Shown here: in pieces, positions 4,723 to 64,000 of the stretch
Layout: every line of letters starts with the position of its first letter
Position numbering within the stretch: position 1 is the stretch's first letter
Assembly (NCBI GenBank): GCA_964460325.1
Contig: CAYWPI010000001.1
Span: forward strand, 11,105 to 75,104
Direction: 5' to 3'
Source of the DNA: an uncultured Candidatus Saccharibacteria bacterium
Lineage (GTDB): Bacteria; Patescibacteriota; Minisyncoccia; UBA6257; 1-14-0-10-44-23
Length of the DNA stretch: 64,000 bases
Position numbers and translations under genes: made by a program
Notes under the pieces: model-generated
Told to the model about the DNA's origin: nothing
Seen by the model: only the letters and a program-made list of their open reading frames with translations
Database searches by the model: none

Positions 4723-6174
4723 TCAACCTATTCGCGGGAACAGTGAAGTTGCTGGCTTTGAACACAAATACTGCTTTCTTTCTTTATCAACCACAATACA
4801 AGCTTGAATTTTTGCGGCCGTCTCAGGTAAAAACGGCACCAAAAGATATGCGGCAGTAGAAAGCATATAAAGCAAGCTCACTAACGCCGCACCCTGCTCC
4901 GGTGAACCGACAGTAAGCTCCCATGGCTTTTTTGCGTTTACATATCCATCACCATATCCGATCAACTTCCAAATAGCCGCCAACGCATCATGAAAACGCA
5001 AAGACTGCATGTGAACTTCCACAGCCTTCGTTGCCTCTTCGATTGCCGTGGTTGTTCCCGCTTCAATTTTCTGCTCCAAATCAAACGAAAGCGCGCCAAA
5101 CTTTTGCGCCAAAGTCAGCACGCGGCTGGCAAAATTACCCAGCCCGTTCGCAAGATCAGCATTGAAACGCAGTTTAAACTTCTCATCCGTAAAATCTCCG
5201 TCGTCGTCTGAAGGCACTTCGCGCAAAAGATAATAACGGACTGGCTCGACGCCATACTTGGCGACAAGCTCCATCGGATCAATGACGTTACCAATGCTCT
5301 TAGACATCTTGTGACCATCCACTGTTACAAAACCATGCACAAATAGCTTCTTCGGAAGCGGAAGCTTTGCCGAGAGCAAGATAGCGGGCCAATAAACAGC
5401 ATGAAAACGAATGATGTCTTTGCCAATAATATGCAAGTCGGCTGGCCACCGATCGGGAGCCGCAGAGCGATAGACGTTGAGCGCGTCAAACCAAACATAC
5501 ATAATGTGGTGCTCGTCGCCAGGAACCGGAACGCCCCATCCACGTGAGCGGCTTATAGAACGGGAAATGCTTAAATCCTCTAGCCCATGACGGATAAAGG
5601 CAAGTGCTTCATTTTTGCGAAATGCCGGCTCAATAAGATACTCCCCGCTTTGAATAAGCTCCTGCAATTTTTCTTGATAACTCGAAAGCTTAAAAAAGTA
5701 ATTCTCCTCTTCAACCTCCTCCACTGGTCTGCCTGGATGCAAGGGGCACTCACCGCGCTCACTGAGCTCATCCTTGGTATAAAATGCCTCGCAACCAACG
5801 CAATAAAGCCCTTTATAACGCTTTTTATAAATATCGTTACTTGCCTCACAACGCTTCCACAGTTCCTGCGCGGATGCAACGTGATCCGCGCTACTACTGC
5901 GCTGAAACTTGTCTATCGAAACATTGAATACTTTCAGAAAATCCTGAAATGCACCCGCATATTTATCAGTGAGCGCCTTTACGCTCATCCCTTCTTTTTC
6001 TGCCGCCTGAACAATTTTGAGCGAGTTTTCATCGGCGCCGGAAACATAGAACGTATCATCGCCCTTTTGGCGGTGCCAGCGGGCCAAAGTATCGCCCTGC
6101 ACAAATTCAAGCGCATGACCCATGTGCGGTTTGGCGTTAACATAGGGAATGGCGGCAGTGAGGTAGTATTTCAT
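4723..6174 (-). CDS. metG: Methionyl-tRNA synthetase, short form
   Basis: MKYYLTAAIPYVNAKPHMGHA N-terminus (HMGH) and KMSKSIGNVIDP motif. Confidence 0.9.
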   Translation of the reverse strand: MKYYLTAAIPYVNAKPHMGHALEFVQGDTLARWHRQKGDDTFYVSGADENSLKIVQAAEKEGMSVKALTDKYAGAFQDFLKVFNVSIDKFQRSSSADHVASAQELWKRCEASNDIYKKRYKGLYCVGCEAFYTKDELSERGECPLHPGRPVEEVEEENYFFKLSSYQEKLQELIQSGEYLIEPAFRKNEALAFIRHGLEDLSISRSISRSRGWGVPVPGDEHHIMYVWFDALNVYRSAAPDRWPADLHIIGKDIIRFHAVYWPAILLSAKLPLPKKLFVHGFVTVDGHKMSKSIGNVIDPMELVAKYGVEPVRYYLLREVPSDDDGDFTDEKFKLRFNADLANGLGNFASRVLTLAQKFGALSFDLEQKIEAGTTTAIEEATKAVEVHMQSLRFHDALAAIWKLIGYGDGYVNAKKPWELTVGSPEQGAALVSLLYMLSTAAYLLVPFLPETAAKIQACIVVDKERKQYLCSKPATSLFPRIG

Positions 6175-6271: not shown

Positions 6272-7303
6272 TTAAAGCTGGCCTTCTGTCGGCGGTAAAA
6301 CCGGACGATGACTAACCGACCAGTCGCGTAACATCTCTTGCACCAACACCGCAAGGGGCACTGCCAAGATGACGCCAATGAGCCCAAAGATCTTGCCACC
6401 CATAAGAAGCGATACAAGCACAATGACCGGATTAAGATTCGTGCTCTTCCCCATAACAGTCGGAATAAGCAGGTGGCTTTCAATTTGCTGAATAACAATA
6501 AAAAGGACAAGCGTATACAGCCCAAGAGTCACCGATTCAGTTAGCGCAAAAAGCACTGCCATACCGCCTGAAAATATCGGCCCAACGTATGGGATAAGCT
6601 CAAAGGCGCCCGCCAGCATGCCAAGAATAAGACTGTATTTTACGCCCAAAATCCATAAACCGATAAAGACAGCAAGCCCCACAATAAGACTTAGCAGTAA
6701 TTGGCCGCGAAACCATAAACTGATTTTACGCCTAACTCGTTCATAAATCGTGAGTACCTTTTCATGGTGCTGATATGGCAAAACCGTGATTAAAAATTTT
6801 TCAACACCGTCTCGCCCCACGGTAAGATAAAACGAGATAACAAACACGATGGCAGCGAAAAAGAGGCCGCCCAAAAATCGAGAGAAAATAGTGATGATAG
6901 TAATTTTACCGCCAAGAAAACCGGCCGTCACTTCATTTAGTCCCTGAATAAGCCCATCGAACACCCTTGCCCCTTCTTCGCCAAAATTTTGCACAATGGA
7001 ACCCATAAAACCGCCCGAGTTACTCAAGATACTATTAAGTTCCACCAACGCAACGGGAACCAGAAGATAAATAATAATCGCAACAAAAAGAATGGCGATA
7101 ATATAAATTGCCAGCGTGCCCAAAATACGTGGCACATTCTTGCGCTCAAGAAAGCTGACCCATGGATCAAGCGCCGAGGAAATGATAATCGCTAAAAACA
7201 CGGCAACCAAAATTTCGCGGGTCACAAAAAGTGCCGCCACAAGCCCCATCATCGCTAACACCTTCCATAGGGCTCCCCAACTTATTCCTCGGTCTTCAAT
7301 CAT
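6272..7303 (-). CDS. AI-2E family (PerM/YhhT-like) transporter
   Basis: 343 aa with multiple transmembrane segments and AI-2E-like hydrophobic pattern. Confidence 0.7.
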   Translation of the reverse strand: MIEDRGISWGALWKVLAMMGLVAALFVTREILVAVFLAIIISSALDPWVSFLERKNVPRILGTLAIYIIAILFVAIIIYLLVPVALVELNSILSNSGGFMGSIVQNFGEEGARVFDGLIQGLNEVTAGFLGGKITIITIFSRFLGGLFFAAIVFVISFYLTVGRDGVEKFLITVLPYQHHEKVLTIYERVRRKISLWFRGQLLLSLIVGLAVFIGLWILGVKYSLILGMLAGAFELIPYVGPIFSGGMAVLFALTESVTLGLYTLVLFIVIQQIESHLLIPTVMGKSTNLNPVIVLVSLLMGGKIFGLIGVILAVPLAVLVQEMLRDWSVSHRPVLPPTEGQL

Positions 7304-7430
7304 TATAGATATTAAAACACGCCATCGTAGTAACCGTAAACCCCCACACCAAACGTGGAACAGTCTCAGAGTTAGTAGCGGAGCTAGGCCTCCACATGTG
7401 ATGTGGGAGTAAAATATAATTGACCCCGAA

Positions 7431-22087: not shown

Positions 22088-22253
22088 GGTGCGCAAAACT
22101 GGAAGAAATTACACTGCCGACCTTTTCAGGGTCAGCGCCAACAAATAATGCACTCCAGTAATTTGTGCGCATTACCGAAATCGAACCAGCGGTTTTTTCA
22201 ATGTTAAAGAACTCACTCAATCAAACCTGGCGACTTTCGTCCACTGAGCCCTG
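22088..22253 (-). other. tRNA-derived fragments or a disrupted tRNA, including a Phe-GAA-like anticodon arm, a D-loop-like GGCTCAGTGG and a T-loop-like GGTTCGATT
   Basis: Manual inspection only. No complete cloverleaf could be folded. The GCGCACA acceptor-like motif occurs three times. Confidence 0.3.
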
Positions 22254-22325
22254 TGCGCGCTGGAGGGATTGAACCTCCGACCTTTTCAATGTCAATGAAA
22301 CGCTCTACCACTGAGCTAAGCGCGC
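22254..22325 (-). tRNA. tRNA-Val(GAC)
   Basis: Manual fold: GCGCGCT acceptor, loop TTGACAT, T-arm GGAGGTTCAATCCCTCC. Confidence 0.8.
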
Positions 22326-27595: not shown

Positions 27596-27873
27596 AAGGC
27601 CCCCAAAACGGAAAAGGAATTTCGTCGAGCCTGGCAACGAGCCAGCTCGAACTATCCTTACCCTGCAACAAGGCCTAGGGATAGTCAAGACGCCAGGCTA
27701 AGCTAGGCCGGGCATGTATCACTTCCTATCGTTGGTGCGTGTGGATCAAAGTCAACAGACATTGATGGGTGGCGGTCAACTAACCATAATCCAGGCGCCA
27801 CCCGGGGACGGAATGAAATTCCTTCCACGCAATATGAATTAAAGTTTGACCCTTTACGGGCCAAACTTTACTG

Positions 27874-27945
27874 TGCGTGTGGAAGGAATCGAACCTTCGA
27901 CCTTTTCATTATCAGTGAAATGCTCTACCACTGAGCTACACACGC
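27874..27945 (-). tRNA. tRNA-Ile(GAT)
   Basis: Manual fold: GCGTGTG acceptor, loop CTGATAA, T-arm GAAGGTTCGATTCCTTC. Confidence 0.8.
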
Positions 27946-28057
27946 AATATTTACTGTAGAGCATTGAAATGCTCTTCCGGGGTGAGTTACCGAATTATAG
28001 TTTTTTGAACCTCACCCGTCGAGACCTGCTGGCCTCGACCCACTGAGCTACACACGC
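27946..28057 (-). repeat. Upstream tRNA module 1: duplicated tRNA-Ile 5' fragment (18 nt) plus three hairpins (GTCGAG...CTCGAC; GGGTGAG...CTCACCC; CGGAAGAGC...GCTCTAC)
   Basis: Direct comparison with 63694-63803, which has the same architecture and conserved GTCGAGGCCA, ATAATTC and CGGAAGAGC motifs. Confidence 0.6.
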
Positions 28058-28094
28058 AGAATGCTATTTATTTAAGACGAAAATTGTTTCTTGG

Positions 28095-50544: not shown

Positions 50545-53500
50545 TTAGTACCCTGCTGACTTAATAATACTCTCCGCTGTCTCATTCGCCGGGCACCTGA
50601 AGCTTTTTGAACCACCACATTTAGTACAATCAACCACTACAACCGGGAGCTGTGTGCAAGTAGCGCCAGCGGTCGCTGGATTATATGTTGCACGTCCTCG
50701 TTCATCAAGAGCATCTGCCAGACCGGGAGTGTATGGGATACCGCGCGAACGCAAAGTCGAGGCAAAATTTTTACATATTGTACATGTTCCCGGCTTCGCT
50801 GGTATATTACCAAACTCACCACCCCTCCCATATATTGTTATCGCACACTTACAACCAGCTCCAACGACCGGTGATGATTGCACAGGAGGCTGCTCTAAGC
50901 AACCACACTTCCCATCTGGCATTACTCCACAACGCCCACCCGCAGAAGTACACTTTTTCTGAGTACAGATTGAATTCTTTGCATTCCTATACTCCGGGGT
51001 CTTTATCGCCTCAGAAATCGGGACACCACCCCACGTCATGTTGCCCGCTCGATCCAGAACGATACCCATTTCATCCGCCTTAACTTCACAGCCTATAGGA
51101 TATTTTAACGACGTTGAAGGCGGTTGCAGTGGCGACTTCGGCTCCCGATAAGGAGTTGTCGGACTTTTAGTTTGCGGAGTTGTAGCTGGACTTCCTCCCG
51201 TCGAACCACCATCTGGCGTGACCGGAGGTTGTGTTGCTGGCGGCGGCGGACTACCACAGGCACATCCATCGCCACTCACAGTTGACTGACAAATACCAGC
51301 GGTACAATTAAGACCCTTCTTTGAACAGGCTGCGCTCGGCGAAACTCCGCCACAATCACCCCATGTTTCTTCAATGGAAATTAAGAAATTAATTTGCGTC
51401 TGAGTTAATCCGGCATCCTCTCCGTTCTCAGTTATTTGCTCTGGAGATGGACAGTTCCCTTTATCGTGGGGGACAAGTTTATCAATAAACTCTTGAGCCC
51501 GCTGAACATTCTCAGGTGAGTATCTAAGACAAGTGTTTACTTTCTCGCCAATCACACCCGGATCAATAACACCAGGGAAGTCAAACGGTTCATCTAAACC
51601 AAGCGGAGGCAAATCAGTTGGCTCACTAGGCTCTGGGGATACAAATGGCGGGTATTCTTCTCCATCCGAAATTTCTGGATCGGCAGGATTGACCGCAGGA
51701 ATATCAGGGAATTCAGAAGAATCAGGCGGTGTTAATGGCGCGCACATACATCCACCGCCGGCACTATTACTGCAAGACCCACCGGATTTGGCACAACTCC
51801 CAGAACATTCTCCCGTCGAACCCTTGCCAGTAACCCAATTCAATAATCTTTCCCAGAAGGTTGTATCATGACACGTATCTCCCGGCTCAAGCACAGGTGC
51901 AGCTGTCGGCGCATCGACTACAGGGGGTTGAGAGTCGTCATTTGAATCTGGCGAGGCGGTCGGGGCAGTAGGGGCTGAAGCTGGCGCAGCTGATCCGTTA
52001 CAGCTGCATGTAATAACATATTTCCCGTTTTGCAAAGTTGGTGATGACGGCGCACACTTCCCAGCAGAACAAGCCTTTGTATCTGTTGAACAAACAGCAC
52101 CTAATGCACCAGAGGCTATATTATCTGCAACAGCCTCTTTTTCCTTTTCCAAACGCTGAGTTTCACTGTTTAAATTCGTAACAAGGCTTGGCACCTGATT
52201 CCTTGCAACCTCAAGCCCACGATTATAATCACCGTTGCCGAGTTGAGTTATTTGTTGATTAATACTAGTAATTGATGCCGTAATTTGATTGAGAAGGTTT
52301 AATTGCTCATCAAGTTTTGCATTACCAACCCGAGTACAAGAACCCGCTTTGTCAGTTCCAACAACAGGCGGAACGGTAGGCACAACAGGAATCGGGGCAG
52401 GTTCGGTCGGTGTTACTGGTACAACAGGAGCAACTGGTTGCTCGCCAGTTGATTGCGGTACTGCTCCTGCTGGCACATTGCCATCACTAGCTCTATCAGG
52501 CGTAGAACCACCACAGCATTCAATTGAATACTGCAAATAACCACTTGCGGTCGTCCGCTTTACCAATACAGCTGGCCCACACTGACCACCTCCAGAGCAT
52601 TGTGCCGCTGGATCGCCGCCGCACATAAAATCTTTCGCGCTCGCCAACGCCTTCACGAGATTGTCATAAGTTGGTTTTATTCTCTGCGCAGCAAACCGCG
52701 CCTGCTCATCAGCTGACATCGACTGGCTTTTTTCACCTAAATACTGATAAAGCGCATTGAGCTCTAATAATGGATCAGTTACTGAAGGTGTAATTGTTTT
52801 TTGACACACTCTGGGCGCAGTTATATTCAAATCAGCACCTTCGGGATTCTGCGGAAGCCCGTCATTATTCCCGAAAATAGTCCCAAACACCTTCGCGCGA
52901 AATGCCGCTGCAAACTTTGATGGAAGGCTTAATATGCTGTCAGATGCTGATGCCGGAGCATCAGCCCCGCTACCACTACCCGCACCAGTCGATCCACCAG
53001 TGCCGGGAGTTGAACCACCTCCGCTAGTACCACCAGACCCAGCCGAACCTCCGTCTTTTACGGAATTCGTAATCCCGCACGCCATAGTCCAGTTGTAATT
53101 CACCTCAACCGCCGCCTCAACATTAACAGTAATCTTAACTGAATCACCCGAACCGCTCTGCTTAGCCTGTGTAACATACGCACCTTCATCACTCGAATCA
53201 TCCCCAGTATAAGTGCAGGCACCAATACTATATGTTAACTCCGTACCACACGGCTTACAGTTAGTCTCCTTCCCGTCATTGGGACACGAAACATCACAGG
53301 CGATAATCTTATTTTTTGCAGCACTCTCTGCATTAGCATTTGCACTCTCACAAGCCGACTTCTGCGCCGCTTCAAGCATTTCTCGAAACTCCCCTTGTAC
53401 GCGATTAATAAATTGCACACCATTTTCATATTGAGTCGTTTTGTTTGCACACTCAGTTCTGCAACTGATAATTGGGTAGGTAGACTGAGGACCGGCAACA

Positions 53501-55023
53501 TTTTCACATACAGTATACGCATCTTCACAAGCACCTGTTCCATGAGTAAGCGTCTGCGAAGCGCTGCCTGACCCCGTTACTGATTCAGCATTGCTTCCAG
53601 TCTTTGTTGTCGCAGGGCATGATGGCCCTTGAGTTGGCTCTGGCACTGGCGAACCAGTCACCTCCTGACATCCACAGGTCGGCACGGTAACTGCCTCATA
53701 TCCTCCCGTATCACCGCCAACCCACCGCCGATCTGATTGAGTTCCCGCAACACAGGTTCCCGCCGCACCACTAGAGGTGGTGCACTCGCCGCCACACTCA
53801 GAACGCTGAGCACACTCATCTCCACCACCAGTTGCCGTTGTGCCACTCGGAAGTTCACTGTCGGGCTTGCCACCAAACACATCATCGAAAAAGGAGGTAA
53901 TGTTTCGTAAAACATTCACGATGCCGTTGGTCACCACGCTAAGAGCGGTTGTGCGAGCATCAGGAACCGTAAAAACACCAACCTGGGTCTCAAGGTCAAC
54001 ACGACCCAACACATTATTGGCTGTCTTCACTGCAATTTCATCAATCAAATCACCCGCTTTTGTAACATGCAGCTCGGTAATGGTTCCTGTTTGAGTTTCG
54101 GCAAAAACTTGTTCCCCAGAAATAGTGGCAAAAACTTGTTCCCCAGAAATAATACGCGGAGCCACTTGGAAAGGAACACAATCAGAGCCGCATGCTTGCT
54201 GATCAGCATAAGCTTCTGCGGTTGTGGGCAATAAGATAACCTGCAACCTTTGTCCACTTACGGGATCCACGGTTTGCGTGTCTGCCGTTACCACATTCGT
54301 TGTTTGAGCGGGCACCCAAATCTGCAAAGCTGATTTCACTTGTGGAACAGAGGCGGCGGGAGCAGTTGTTACGCGTTGACCGGTTCCTGCATCTGCCGTT
54401 GGCTGCCTATCAATCACCGGTTCAGTTGTTACCCCGCTGGGAAGTTGCGGATCAGAAACAATGGGCGGCAGAGGATCTATAAGCGCTTGAATATTAGGAA
54501 CTTCCACAATTTTCGTCGCTCCGCCGGACACCGCCGAACCGCTCATCCACGCATCGATAAGACTTTTTGCATTTGCCCCCGGATCATATGGCTGGGTAAC
54601 AATACCCGCACCAGATCCCTTCGAATTACTAGGTGGTGTCACTGTTGAACCAGAGCCACCGGCTTGAGTTGCTCCTCCATCGTTACCTGTTACGTTTTGC
54701 GAACCAGAGCCTGATGGCTGAGTATAGCTTGGAAGGTCAGGCGTGAAATGAGGAAGAATCGGCTCTACTTCGAAATAAATACCACCCGGCTCTTGATCAT
54801 TTTTTCGTTCTTCATAAAAACTAGTTCCACTGGTATCCGCCATGTTGCCTCCCGCTCCGCCTTGATACACTTGAGCCAGCTGACTTGAGCCAACGATATC
54901 GGCCGGAATCACTGGGAGCATTCCCGTGACCAAAGCGAGTGCCGCAACCGGAAGCACAAGTCGAACAATATGTCGCATCATTGATATGTAAATAAAGTGT
55001 AAAGATAAAGAAGAGCTCCTCAA
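50545..55023 (-). CDS. Giant secreted Cys-, Gly- and Thr-rich surface protein (1492 aa)
   Basis: Signal peptide or N-terminal transmembrane segment. Numerous Cys-rich segments. Internal 27-nt perfect tandem duplication at ~54098-54151 (ISGEQVFA x2). Confidence 0.65.
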   Translation of the reverse strand: MRSSSLSLHFIYISMMRHIVRLVLPVAALALVTGMLPVIPADIVGSSQLAQVYQGGAGGNMADTSGTSFYEERKNDQEPGGIYFEVEPILPHFTPDLPSYTQPSGSGSQNVTGNDGGATQAGGSGSTVTPPSNSKGSGAGIVTQPYDPGANAKSLIDAWMSGSAVSGGATKIVEVPNIQALIDPLPPIVSDPQLPSGVTTEPVIDRQPTADAGTGQRVTTAPAASVPQVKSALQIWVPAQTTNVVTADTQTVDPVSGQRLQVILLPTTAEAYADQQACGSDCVPFQVAPRIISGEQVFATISGEQVFAETQTGTITELHVTKAGDLIDEIAVKTANNVLGRVDLETQVGVFTVPDARTTALSVVTNGIVNVLRNITSFFDDVFGGKPDSELPSGTTATGGGDECAQRSECGGECTTSSGAAGTCVAGTQSDRRWVGGDTGGYEAVTVPTCGCQEVTGSPVPEPTQGPSCPATTKTGSNAESVTGSGSASQTLTHGTGACEDAYTVCENVAGPQSTYPIISCRTECANKTTQYENGVQFINRVQGEFREMLEAAQKSACESANANAESAAKNKIIACDVSCPNDGKETNCKPCGTELTYSIGACTYTGDDSSDEGAYVTQAKQSGSGDSVKITVNVEAAVEVNYNWTMACGITNSVKDGGSAGSGGTSGGGSTPGTGGSTGAGSGSGADAPASASDSILSLPSKFAAAFRAKVFGTIFGNNDGLPQNPEGADLNITAPRVCQKTITPSVTDPLLELNALYQYLGEKSQSMSADEQARFAAQRIKPTYDNLVKALASAKDFMCGGDPAAQCSGGGQCGPAVLVKRTTASGYLQYSIECCGGSTPDRASDGNVPAGAVPQSTGEQPVAPVVPVTPTEPAPIPVVPTVPPVVGTDKAGSCTRVGNAKLDEQLNLLNQITASITSINQQITQLGNGDYNRGLEVARNQVPSLVTNLNSETQRLEKEKEAVADNIASGALGAVCSTDTKACSAGKCAPSSPTLQNGKYVITCSCNGSAAPASAPTAPTASPDSNDDSQPPVVDAPTAAPVLEPGDTCHDTTFWERLLNWVTGKGSTGECSGSCAKSGGSCSNSAGGGCMCAPLTPPDSSEFPDIPAVNPADPEISDGEEYPPFVSPEPSEPTDLPPLGLDEPFDFPGVIDPGVIGEKVNTCLRYSPENVQRAQEFIDKLVPHDKGNCPSPEQITENGEDAGLTQTQINFLISIEETWGDCGGVSPSAACSKKGLNCTAGICQSTVSGDGCACGSPPPPATQPPVTPDGGSTGGSPATTPQTKSPTTPYREPKSPLQPPSTSLKYPIGCEVKADEMGIVLDRAGNMTWGGVPISEAIKTPEYRNAKNSICTQKKCTSAGGRCGVMPDGKCGCLEQPPVQSSPVVGAGCKCAITIYGRGGEFGNIPAKPGTCTICKNFASTLRSRGIPYTPGLADALDERGRATYNPATAGATCTQLPVVVVDCTKCGGSKSFRCPANETAESIIKSAGY

Positions 55024-62862: not shown

Positions 62863-63091
62863 CGTTGCGGCACAGCGGAGGAATTCTCGCCCTTCGTAGT
62901 CTTGACGAAGAACGGGTCACCTCACTTCCACATATCAAACGTATGTACTTACTTCTCTACCCTACCACCCCCAAAAAATTGAGCAAGTGGATAACACAAA
63001 ACCCGCCAAAGGCGGGTTTTGCTGAATACTAAATCTTAGCTTCCTTATGCGCCGTATGTTTTCCGTTCGGCAAGCTCAGGATGCACACACG

Positions 63092-63262
63092 CTATATTTT
63101 AGCTTCTTTGTGAGCCGTGTGTTTTCGGCACTGGCTGCAGAACTTGGAAAGAGCGATTTTGCGCTCCACAAGCTTTTTGTTCTTACGCGTGTAATAATTA
63201 CTGCTCTTGCACACCGTGCAGCGAAGCTTTATTTGGTTTTTGTTGCGCTTTGAGTCAGACAT
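63092..63262 (-). CDS. rpmG: 50S ribosomal protein L33; not in the ORF track
   Basis: MSDSKRNKNQIKLRCTVCKSSNYYTRKNKKLVERKIALSKFCSQCRKHTAHKEAKI matches the L33 family pattern. Confidence 0.85.
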   Translation of the reverse strand: MSDSKRNKNQIKLRCTVCKSSNYYTRKNKKLVERKIALSKFCSQCRKHTAHKEAKI

Positions 63263-63396: not shown

Positions 63397-63677
63397 GCCG
63401 ATGTAGCTCAGCTGGTAGAGCAACTCCATGGTGGCTCGCAAAGCCCGCCCATTACGTAAGTAATTACGTAATGAATCCCGAATAACGGTTAATATCCCAA
63501 CAAAGTCAGGGCAAGATCCTTCGGCTTCGCTCAGGACAAGACCGTAGCGTCAATTGACGCTCGAACGACTGACAAGGGCTCCGATGCTTGAGATGCGGAG
63601 AAGATACAGTCTAGCCCTTTATGTAAATAGAGGTGTAAGCGAAGGAGTAGGTCGCCGGTTCAATTCCGGCCATCGGC
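63397..63677 (+). tRNA. tRNA interrupted by a group I intron; tentatively tRNA-Thr(GGT) if the splice site is between positions 36 and 37
   Basis: 5' exon GCCGATGTAGCTCAGCTGGTAGAGCAACTCCATGGT. 3' exon AAGGAGTAGGTCGCCGGTTCAATTCCGGCCATCGGCT. The exons fold into a cloverleaf. Anticodon assignment is uncertain. Confidence 0.6.
63433..63640 (+). other. Group I intron (~208 nt, no ORF)
   Basis: P-like GACCGTAGCGTCAATTG, R-like CGAACGACTGACAAGG, S-like AAGATACAGTCTAG (P7 pairing GACTG/CAGTC). 5' exon ends in U and the intron ends in G. Confidence 0.55.
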
Positions 63678-63693
63678 TCACAATTAAATAGCA

Positions 63694-63803
63694 GCTACCA
63701 CCTTAGCTCAGTTGGGTCGAGGCCACCAGGCCGAGACGGGCGAACCGCCTGAGCGTCATAATTCAAAGTTCGCCCCGGAAGAGCTTGCTCTACCGACGAT
63801 ATT
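63694..63803 (+). repeat. Upstream tRNA module 2: duplicated 18-nt 5' fragment of tRNA-Thr(TGT) plus conserved hairpins
   Basis: CCACCTTAGCTCAGTTGG, then GTCGAGGCCACCAGGCCGAGAC, then GGGCGAAC...GTTCGCCC, then CGGAAGAGCTTGCTCTAC. Same organisation as 27946-28057. Confidence 0.6.
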
Positions 63804-63876
63804 GCCACCTTAGCTCAGTTGGTAGAGCAACACTTTTGTAAAGTGAAGGTCCCCGGTTCAAGTCCGGGAGGTGGCT
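63804..63876 (+). tRNA. tRNA-Thr(TGT)
   Basis: Manual fold: GCCACCT acceptor, loop TTTGTAA, T-arm CCCGGTTCAAGTCCGGG. Confidence 0.8.
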
Positions 63877-63965
63877 CAAATGATCTTGAACCGGAAACCC
63901 GGTTGCCGCTCAAGTGGCGGCATTGCGATTTCTAAGTGCTCAAAATCTCGCACAGAAATCGGGAA

Positions 63966-63987
63966 CAAGTCCGGGAGGTGGCTCAAA
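63966..63987 (+). repeat. 22-nt direct repeat of the tRNA-Thr(TGT) 3' end (CAAGTCCGGGAGGTGGCTCAAA)
   Basis: Identical to 63859-63880. Separated from the tRNA by ~85 nt of hairpin-rich sequence. Confidence 0.7.
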
Positions 63988-64000
63988 ATAGGATTGACAA

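Follow-up and report, generated by a model that had tools for sequence, protein, structure and literature searches.

Near the right-hand end of the 64,000-nt stretch of DNA analysed here (the window), an intact tRNA-Thr(UGU) gene is bordered on both sides by short arms that contain copies of its own ends. How did a working tRNA gene come to be framed by pieces of itself, and what is the DNA that lies between the pieces? A sequence-only reading of the locus had drawn attention to a repeat downstream and a fragment module upstream, had likened the former to the footprint of site-specific integration, and had proposed a remnant or a miniature element. That last proposal was in the right range of ideas. 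With roughly even confidence, and on the basis of sequence comparison, we take the arms to be scars of miniature hairpin-forming mobile DNA that entered tRNA loops and left the tRNA terminus duplicated.

Both repeats are exact. The 3'-end repeat was recovered as first described: CAAGTCCGGGAGGTGGCTCAAA, which at 63859-63880 runs from the T loop to the 3' end plus CAAA, recurs at 63966-63987 (22/22 identical) with 85 nt between the copies. At the other end of the gene, CCACCTTAGCTCAGTTGG (tRNA nt 2-19, 63805-63822) is found again at 63698-63715 (18/18 identical). The start-to-start offset is 107 nt for both repeats, and the inserts measure 85 nt on the 3' side and 89 nt on the 5' side. By our own estimate, exact matches of 18 and 22 nt between a 75-nt gene and a 400-nt flank have a chance expectation of about 1e-6 to 1e-9. 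The two offsets are equal although the upstream and downstream inserts are unrelated in sequence.

Several simpler identities were considered and rejected. For a tandem duplication with a period of 107, the 85 nt that follow the tRNA should be repeated after the second repeat, which they are not, and tRNA nt 1-18 are absent 107 nt downstream. The outer fragments do not represent an intron-containing tRNA, as the outer copy is without an anticodon arm, and a tmRNA-like gene or known ribozyme found no ARAGORN or Rfam support. An Rfam search of the arms returned nothing at E values up to 10, the only matches being the tRNA and a weak group I intron hit.

The organisation of the arms is given in the table. 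On the 5' side, the outer fragment is followed by a 63-nt double-hairpin core, here called AB, and by hairpin C, in which TTGCTCTACCGAC is antisense to tRNA nt 15-27. It can pair with either the adjacent sense copy or the D arm of the real tRNA, to which the leader at 63785-63797 is antisense over 13 bp, including one G-U. The 3' arm mirrors this order, with a piece antisense to the T arm (CTTGAACCGG, 63885-63894), a sense copy of nt 50-56 (CCCGGTT, 63898-63904), a double hairpin, and finally nt 56-76 plus CAAA. The 61-nt insert of the 3' arm showed no detectable similarity to AB, to the 3' arm of tRNA-Ile described below or to the other sequences compared, so the two sides of the locus may have different histories.

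Table. Positions of the arms at tRNA-Thr(UGU) and tRNA-Ile(GAT), and of all AB copies
Feature	Position	Strand	Details
Intact tRNA-Thr(UGU)	63804-63877	+	ARAGORN and Rfam
Spacer after tRNA-Thr(GGU)	63684-63697	+	with TTAAAT-AGCA
Outer 5' fragment (S1)	63698-63715	+	exact tRNA-Thr(UGU) nt 2-19; acceptor 5' strand to D-loop GG
AB	63716-63778	+	63-nt double-hairpin core; ends CGG; GG at both borders
Hairpin A of Thr AB	63716-63737	+	9 bp; ACCA loop
Hairpin B of Thr AB	63738-63775	+	8 bp; 22-nt loop with CATAAT
Hairpin C	63779-63797	+	sense AAGAGC (D-arm nt 21-25) and antisense TTGCTCTACCGAC
AT-rich spacer	63798-63803	+	GATATT; abuts mature tRNA 5' end
Trailer fold-back	63885-63904	+	antisense CTTGAACCGG, then AAA, then CCCGGTT
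Double-hairpin insert	63905-63965	+	61 nt; GCCGC..GCGGC and CGATTTCT..AGAAATCG; splits outer 3' tRNA copy in T loop
Outer 3' fragment	63966-63987	+	exact tRNA nt 56-76 plus CAAA; ancestral 3' context
Ancestral 3' flank	63988-64000	+	ATAGGATTGACAA; 9/13 against the undisrupted tRNA flank of the relative, 8 contiguous
tRNA-Ile(GAT)	27873-27945	-	
Ile 5' arm	27946-28057	-	S1 28040-28057; AB 27977-28039; hairpin C 27956-27976; spacer 27946-27955
Promoter-like site in Ile 5' arm	28022-27994	-	TCGACG-17-TATAAT
Ile 3' arm	27735-27870	-	terminator-like hairpin 27840-27870; T-arm fold-back 27808-27832
Ile 3' arm, remainder		-	inverted AB 27745-27807; outer 3' fragment 27735-27745
AB copies in the window	63716-63778, 27977-28039, 27745-27807		covariance model
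AB copies in L079	250-312, 5171-5233		covariance model; 3' of tRNA-Ile and 5' of tRNA-Val
AB copy in L075	733-796		covariance model; 5' of tRNA-Thr(GGU)

The window's gene content and its closest loci indicate a Patescibacteria genome (Parcubacteria/Paceibacteria-like). Five related genome fragments, recovered via neighbouring proteins, allowed the same locus and its counterparts to be compared between relatives. Fragment L072 (NCBI JBFOMP010007162.1) has an L33 that is 96% identical to that of the window, while that of L075 (Logan SRR31893986) is 84% identical. In L079 (JGI Ga0451708_0007628) the SHMT is 93% identical, and in L082-L087 it is 71% identical, with gene order as in the window. 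In coding genes the relatives differ from the window by about 25-30% at the nucleotide level. L071 and L001 are Logan contigs from the window's own organism.

The comparison of the locus between relatives, which the sequence-only reading had proposed, yielded an empty version. In L072 an intron-less tRNA-Thr(GGU) is followed by 7 nt, tRNA-Thr(UGU) and then CAAAAGCATATTGACAAGG. The window's counterpart of this flank, CAAAATAGGATTGACAA, is found only after the outer 3' fragment, where the junction reads ...CTCAAAATAGGATTGACAA in the window and ...CTCAAAAGCATATTGACAAGG in L072. The sequence directly after the working tRNA matches the L072 flank at just 4/13 positions, against 9/13 after the outer fragment. 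The empty site and the flank match together indicate that 107 nt was inserted on the 3' side, that the outer fragment is the displaced original end of the gene, and that the structure ends at 63987. An earlier suggestion that it might continue past 64000 was therefore not borne out, as the downstream insert amounts to 107 nt bounded by the 22-nt repeats, with ancestral flank from 63988 onwards. Nor does the repeat belong to a second tRNA gene running past 64000: none is predicted in 63878-64000, and the repeat consists of the 3' end and ancestral flank. On the 5' side of tRNA-Thr(UGU), about 125 nt stand in place of the relative's 7-nt spacer; where the window has the spacer 63684-63697, the empty site has CCCGCAC alone. 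The TTAAAT-AGCA of this spacer is similar to the -10 region of the ancestral tRNA-Ile promoter (28070-28075). Judged by this comparison, about 107 nt has been added on each side of the gene relative to L072.

The upstream neighbour is unusual in its own right. The sequence at 63397-63678, which had been read as a copy of the module, is a tRNA-Thr(GGU) gene that a group I intron of 209 nt (63433-63641, with G as its last base) interrupts at position 36/37. The intron was missed by the sequence-only reading and by ARAGORN, and Rfam Intron_gpI scores only 18.6 bits, but 63397-63432 and 63642-63678 joined together give tRNA-Thr(GGT), and the L072 orthologue is intron-less. Group I introns in Patescibacteria tRNA genes have already been described (PMC13011429). 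A little further upstream, the terminal 35 nt of rpmG (L33, minus strand) occur twice, the second copy 63 nt downstream (63029-63063 and 63092-63126, 83% identity), while in L072 the end of rpmG is present as a single copy directly beside a terminator hairpin. Here too, a gene end is duplicated and the insert is tiny.

Support for the Thr arms at the assembly level is limited by the fact that an independent Logan contig from the same sample, SRR15237813_12041, stops at about 63670, inside the T arm of tRNA-Thr(GGU) and just before the arms begin, so that the Thr arms rest on one assembly. Low coverage could account for such a break, as could a population in which filled and empty alleles coexist. 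The break would also suit an artefact in which tRNA-containing reads had been mis-joined to give the arms. We consider such an artefact highly improbable: in our judgement, repeats of 18 and 22 nt are shorter than the k-mers that assemblers typically use in their last rounds, the Logan assembly, which is independent, agrees at every base over the tRNA-Ile locus, where the architecture is identical, and a 94% identical AB core lies beside a tRNA-Thr in an unrelated sample (L075). Look-ups with L33, a 68-aa ORF and the 2-hydroxyacid dehydrogenase gave no longer contig, the most they returned being the Logan contig ending at about 63670. A scan of a genome collection with the neighbouring 695-aa protein found two distant loci only, both without the tRNA. 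A metagenome scan for GGTCGAGGCC..CCCCGGAAGAGC returned 67 matches, all of them chance matches inside high-GC coding genes, and scans of viral contigs with two module patterns gave chance matches only, none of which fitted the model. The overall evidence base is a handful of metagenomic fragments.

The upstream fragment module of the sequence-only reading held up well. Its span, 63694-63803, is homologous to sequence upstream of tRNA-Ile(GAT) (27946-28061, minus strand), where the same architecture is repeated. The 5' end of tRNA-Ile is repeated over 18 nt at a distance of 112 nt upstream and its 3' end over 11 nt at 138 nt downstream (an offset of the same 107 nt plus a 31-nt terminator-like hairpin), and antisense pieces of the D arm and T arm adjoin the gene. 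The upstream arms of the two tRNAs align, and the downstream arm of tRNA-Ile is an inverted and diverged copy of the same module. The outer 5' copy comes after an ancestral TTGACC-17-TTAAAT promoter that is also present in L082. The left end, TTAAATAGCA, was considered as part of the module and set aside, as at tRNA-Ile it belongs to this ancestral promoter; it is present upstream of the Thr arm too. L082 has, downstream of its intact tRNA-Ile, a second and disrupted copy (7221-7413). This begins with nt 2-12 in antisense, and its two further tRNA segments, nt 13-46 (34/34 identical) and nt 61-76, are each preceded by an insert, a double hairpin of 42 nt in the first case and a hairpin-rich piece of 73 nt in the second. 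The copy resembles an earlier stage or an alternative form of the 3' arm.

A covariance model identified six AB copies in three related genomes (three in the window, two in L079 and one in L075), and each of the six is situated within a copy of a tRNA end. Run with filters off, a core-only model found no AB away from a tRNA within the 64-kb window, and no copy in L072, L082-L087, L002 or L003. AB is exactly 63 nt long in five copies and 64 nt in the sixth, and all are preceded by GG and terminate in GG. It occurs in both orientations, interrupting the displaced tRNA copy just after the D-loop GG or, in the inverted arm, after GTGG on the other strand. The stem of hairpin A is 9 bp long and closes an ANCA loop; that of hairpin B is 7-8 bp long, and the 22-24-nt loop above it always contains ATAA. 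In the stems, 89% of cells are paired and in 11/17 pairs both partners have changed; neither the observed pairing nor the double changes nor the covariation score was matched in any of 500 shuffles, and slid controls were 31-44% paired. Pairwise identity between copies falls to 46% at constant length. The ends of AB, GTCGAGGCC... and ...GCCCCGG, are not mutual inverted repeats, so that a single module is without terminal inverted repeats, and inverted symmetry is seen only between whole arms, at tRNA-Ile. The accompanying tRNA-end repeats vary in length (11, 13, 18-19 and 22 nt). Within the displaced 5' fragment (S1) of the tRNA-Val arm of L079, a perfect 18-nt palindrome, CCTGCCTGCGCAGGCAGG, is cleanly inserted at 5241-5258.

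Which tRNA genes carry arms differs between relatives. The tRNA-Ile 5' arm is present in the window and absent from L079 and L082, the tRNA-Val 5' arm is present in L079 and absent from the window and L082, the tRNA-Thr(UGU) arms are present in the window and absent from L072, and the tRNA-Thr(GGU) arm is present in L075 and absent from the window and L072. The AB core at tRNA-Thr(UGU) in the window is 94% identical to that at tRNA-Thr(GGU) in L075, and AB, hairpin C and spacer together match at 81/89 positions, whereas rpmG is only 75% identical; the S1 beside each copy matches the local tRNA. Conversely, the AB copies 3' of tRNA-Ile in the window and L079 are 51% identical, against 93% for the surrounding 155 nt including the tRNA. 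The antisense piece of the window's Thr arm is a better fit to the D loop found in L072 and L075 (..CGGTAGAGCAA) than to the local one and travels with AB (91% identity), which argues that it came with the module and was not copied from the local tRNA. AB thus behaves like a discrete repeat family resembling a miniature mobile element, as far as these sequences allow. Compared with the window (22253-22325; 63397-63678), L072 and L082, two armed tRNA genes, L079 5061-5136 (Val) and L075 821-893 (Thr(GGU)), are inverted relative to their neighbours, and arm gain and tRNA gene inversion may be linked.

The integration footprint suggested at the outset survives in part. The repeats do mark inserted DNA, as the empty site in L072 attests, but a single classical element at the 3' end would leave the 5' end, the other tRNAs and the 63-nt core unexplained. 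A fuller version would have larger integrase-borne elements entering at the T-loop-to-3'-end block and at a 5' site, each bringing a replacement tRNA end and later being deleted down to about 85-90 nt, with attL/attR-like repeats left behind. The 22-nt repeat indeed spans the T loop to just beyond the 3' end, which is the block of identity typical of tRNA-targeting tyrosine integrases, and the outer copy sits in ancestral flank. Integration-derived tRNA gene fragments have also been documented (PMC9897764). Supporting this, tRNA-Val(GAC) (22253-22325, minus strand) has two degenerate copies of its 3' half downstream, at 22165-22204 and 22089-22128. The nearer of these has the T arm of the relatives (CCGCTGGTTCGAT), which differs from the one in the current gene, so that foreign sequence appears to have replaced the 3' half of the working gene. 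However, six independent arms would have to shrink to one size while retaining an insert of exactly 63 nt that compensatory changes have preserved; arms are found at either end of the tRNA and in either orientation; and the insert interrupts the displaced tRNA copy instead of adjoining it. The integrase or recombinase that the sequence-only reading would have looked for is absent from the precomputed Pfam matches of genes near the Thr and Ile loci, and 107 nt is too small to encode one. Eroded integrase-borne elements are therefore an unlikely origin for the arms. Elsewhere in the window, a 1492-aa ORF (50545-55023, minus strand) has no Pfam match.

The sense and antisense pieces could instead point to errors of local replication. 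Forks stalled at a structured tRNA gene might switch template, folding back and then returning, and so leave sense-antisense-sense partial triplications of the D and T arms. Unrelated hairpin repeats would later pile up in the fragments, which are redundant and non-essential, since any that entered the working gene would be lethal. Under such a scheme the presence of tRNA nt 15-25 three times (sense, antisense, sense), and of the T arm likewise, is expected, and the disrupted tRNA-Ile copy of L082, which opens in antisense and contains two hairpin inserts of another kind, and the palindrome inside S1 of the L079 Val arm are also in keeping with it. Nevertheless, every arm would require three separate steps (duplication, fold-back and AB insertion) to come together, the spacers do not copy the upstream leader, and the antisense piece, with its better fit to the L072/L075 D loop, travels with AB. 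On balance, an origin in replication errors is quite unlikely.

Another possibility is that the arms are kept by selection as functional flanks, in the form of a promoter cassette and/or a structured 5' leader and 3' trailer that would exert antisense or decoy control over tRNA folding, processing or transcription. The region folds far better than shuffled sequence (z = -5.5 and -7.9), the antisense piece can pair with the decoy or with the tRNA D arm so that alternative structures are possible, the stems are kept by compensatory changes, and the ATAA of the B loop is invariant. A promoter-like -35/-10 pair is aimed at the tRNA. It spans the A/B junction and the loop of hairpin B, with TTGATG-17-CATAAT as its form in the inverted Ile 3' arm. 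The promoter-like sites in both Ile arms point at the tRNA and are the sole promoter-like matches in that region; the corresponding match in the Thr module, GAGACG-18-CATAAT, is weak and below the scan threshold. The high identity of AB between genomes that are 25% diverged in rpmG would also suit a selected sequence. Against this, orthologous tRNAs in relatives do without the arms, which are thus dispensable; the same module is inverted on the 3' side, where transcription from the promoter-like site would run antisense; copies in equivalent positions share just 51% identity; and Rfam finds no match. Selection on function is in our view improbable as the main account of the arms, although a functional signal, in RNA or DNA, would also be compatible with how strongly the AB stems and ATAAT are conserved.

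Under the mobile-DNA reading, tRNA-Thr(UGU) would have received small non-coding hairpin-forming DNA on both sides while the gene itself stayed intact. Each insertion would leave a displaced tRNA terminus on the outside (nt 2-25 upstream, nt 50-76 downstream). A double hairpin of about 60 nt interrupts this displaced copy in its D or T loop, and a short antisense piece that folds back into a hairpin connects it to the working gene. AB-type modules would insert at GG sites in the loops of tRNA genes. We infer that insertion and duplication of the tRNA's terminal segment are one event, comparable to a long target-site or att-like duplication, because insertion would otherwise destroy a single-copy essential tRNA gene. 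Speculative candidates for the intermediate are a folded single strand on which a recombinase acts and template switching. Transcription of the displaced tRNA may be helped by the -35/-10-like site at the A/B junction and in the loop of hairpin B. In L072, tRNA-Thr(UGU) is probably co-transcribed with its upstream neighbour, and a module that separates the two may need to supply a promoter.

Certain features sit less comfortably with mobility. No transposase, integrase or full-length parent element was found, and the case for mobility therefore depends on comparative patterns among five related genome fragments. In addition, the duplicated tRNA segment is of variable length, unlike the product of a fixed staggered cut, and a module that moves between different tRNAs nevertheless bears the first 18 nt of the local tRNA.

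A more far-reaching claim, which we regard as possible but doubtful, is that AB-type modules represent an undescribed class of non-autonomous mobile DNA in Patescibacteria that invades loop GG sites of tRNA genes, duplicates the terminus and supplies a new promoter. The very small genomes of Patescibacteria presumably hold their tRNA genes in single copy, and DNA that targets the tRNA genes of minimal genomes must avoid killing its host. If the claim is true, the length of the target duplication would be set by tRNA structure, and the gene would be left intact with a new promoter. Selfish DNA would then have a new means of surviving in a minimal genome, and tRNA genes would have a source of rearrangement; the observed turnover of tRNA genes between relatives, and possibly their inversion, may also be driven by the modules. 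The arms also create tRNA fragments and may break assemblies.

Full-text literature searches found no description of tRNA-flanking hairpin modules in Patescibacteria, and several known systems share some of their features. One is the group of tRNA-targeting integrative elements such as tyrosine-integrase islands and prophages, in which, as at the Thr locus, direct repeats of the tRNA terminus bound the insert, the working gene is restored and the displaced copy keeps the ancestral flank. However, the inserts here are only 85-89 nt long and without a recombinase, they occur at the 5' end as well as the 3' end, and the displaced copy is split by a double hairpin of fixed length and capped by an antisense fold-back.

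Duplication-inverted triplication-duplication rearrangements arise by replication template switching and resemble the arms in their sense-antisense-sense order and in turning at a stem-loop. The arms differ in their scale of 10-13 nt, in an antisense piece that travels with the module and in the constant presence of a 63-nt mobile-looking unit.

Bacterial miniature repeats, including MITEs such as Correia and RUP and the Rickettsia palindromic elements, are small, non-coding, multi-copy and hairpin-forming, and some have promoter elements; the Rickettsia elements can even sit inside RNA genes. In general description, AB is likewise small, non-coding and multi-copy (three copies in 64 kb). Unlike MITEs, it has no terminal inverted repeats; beyond the 2-nt border GG of all six copies, it apparently has no short fixed target duplication either. 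It was found only within tRNA-derived sequence and is accompanied by a long duplication of the tRNA end.

Double-hairpin and other repetitive hairpin-forming elements of fungal and sponge mitochondrial genomes (PMC2800124 and references therein) also resemble AB. They are short and non-coding, consist of two hairpins whose structure is conserved more than their sequence, occur in both orientations, vary between relatives and inhabit small compact genomes. These elements are organellar and lie mostly in intergenic or variable rRNA regions, and gene-end duplication is not reported for them (PMC2800124), whereas every AB copy lies in tRNA-derived sequence of a bacterium. For this reason, the mitochondrial family is best seen as an analogue of AB and not as its home.
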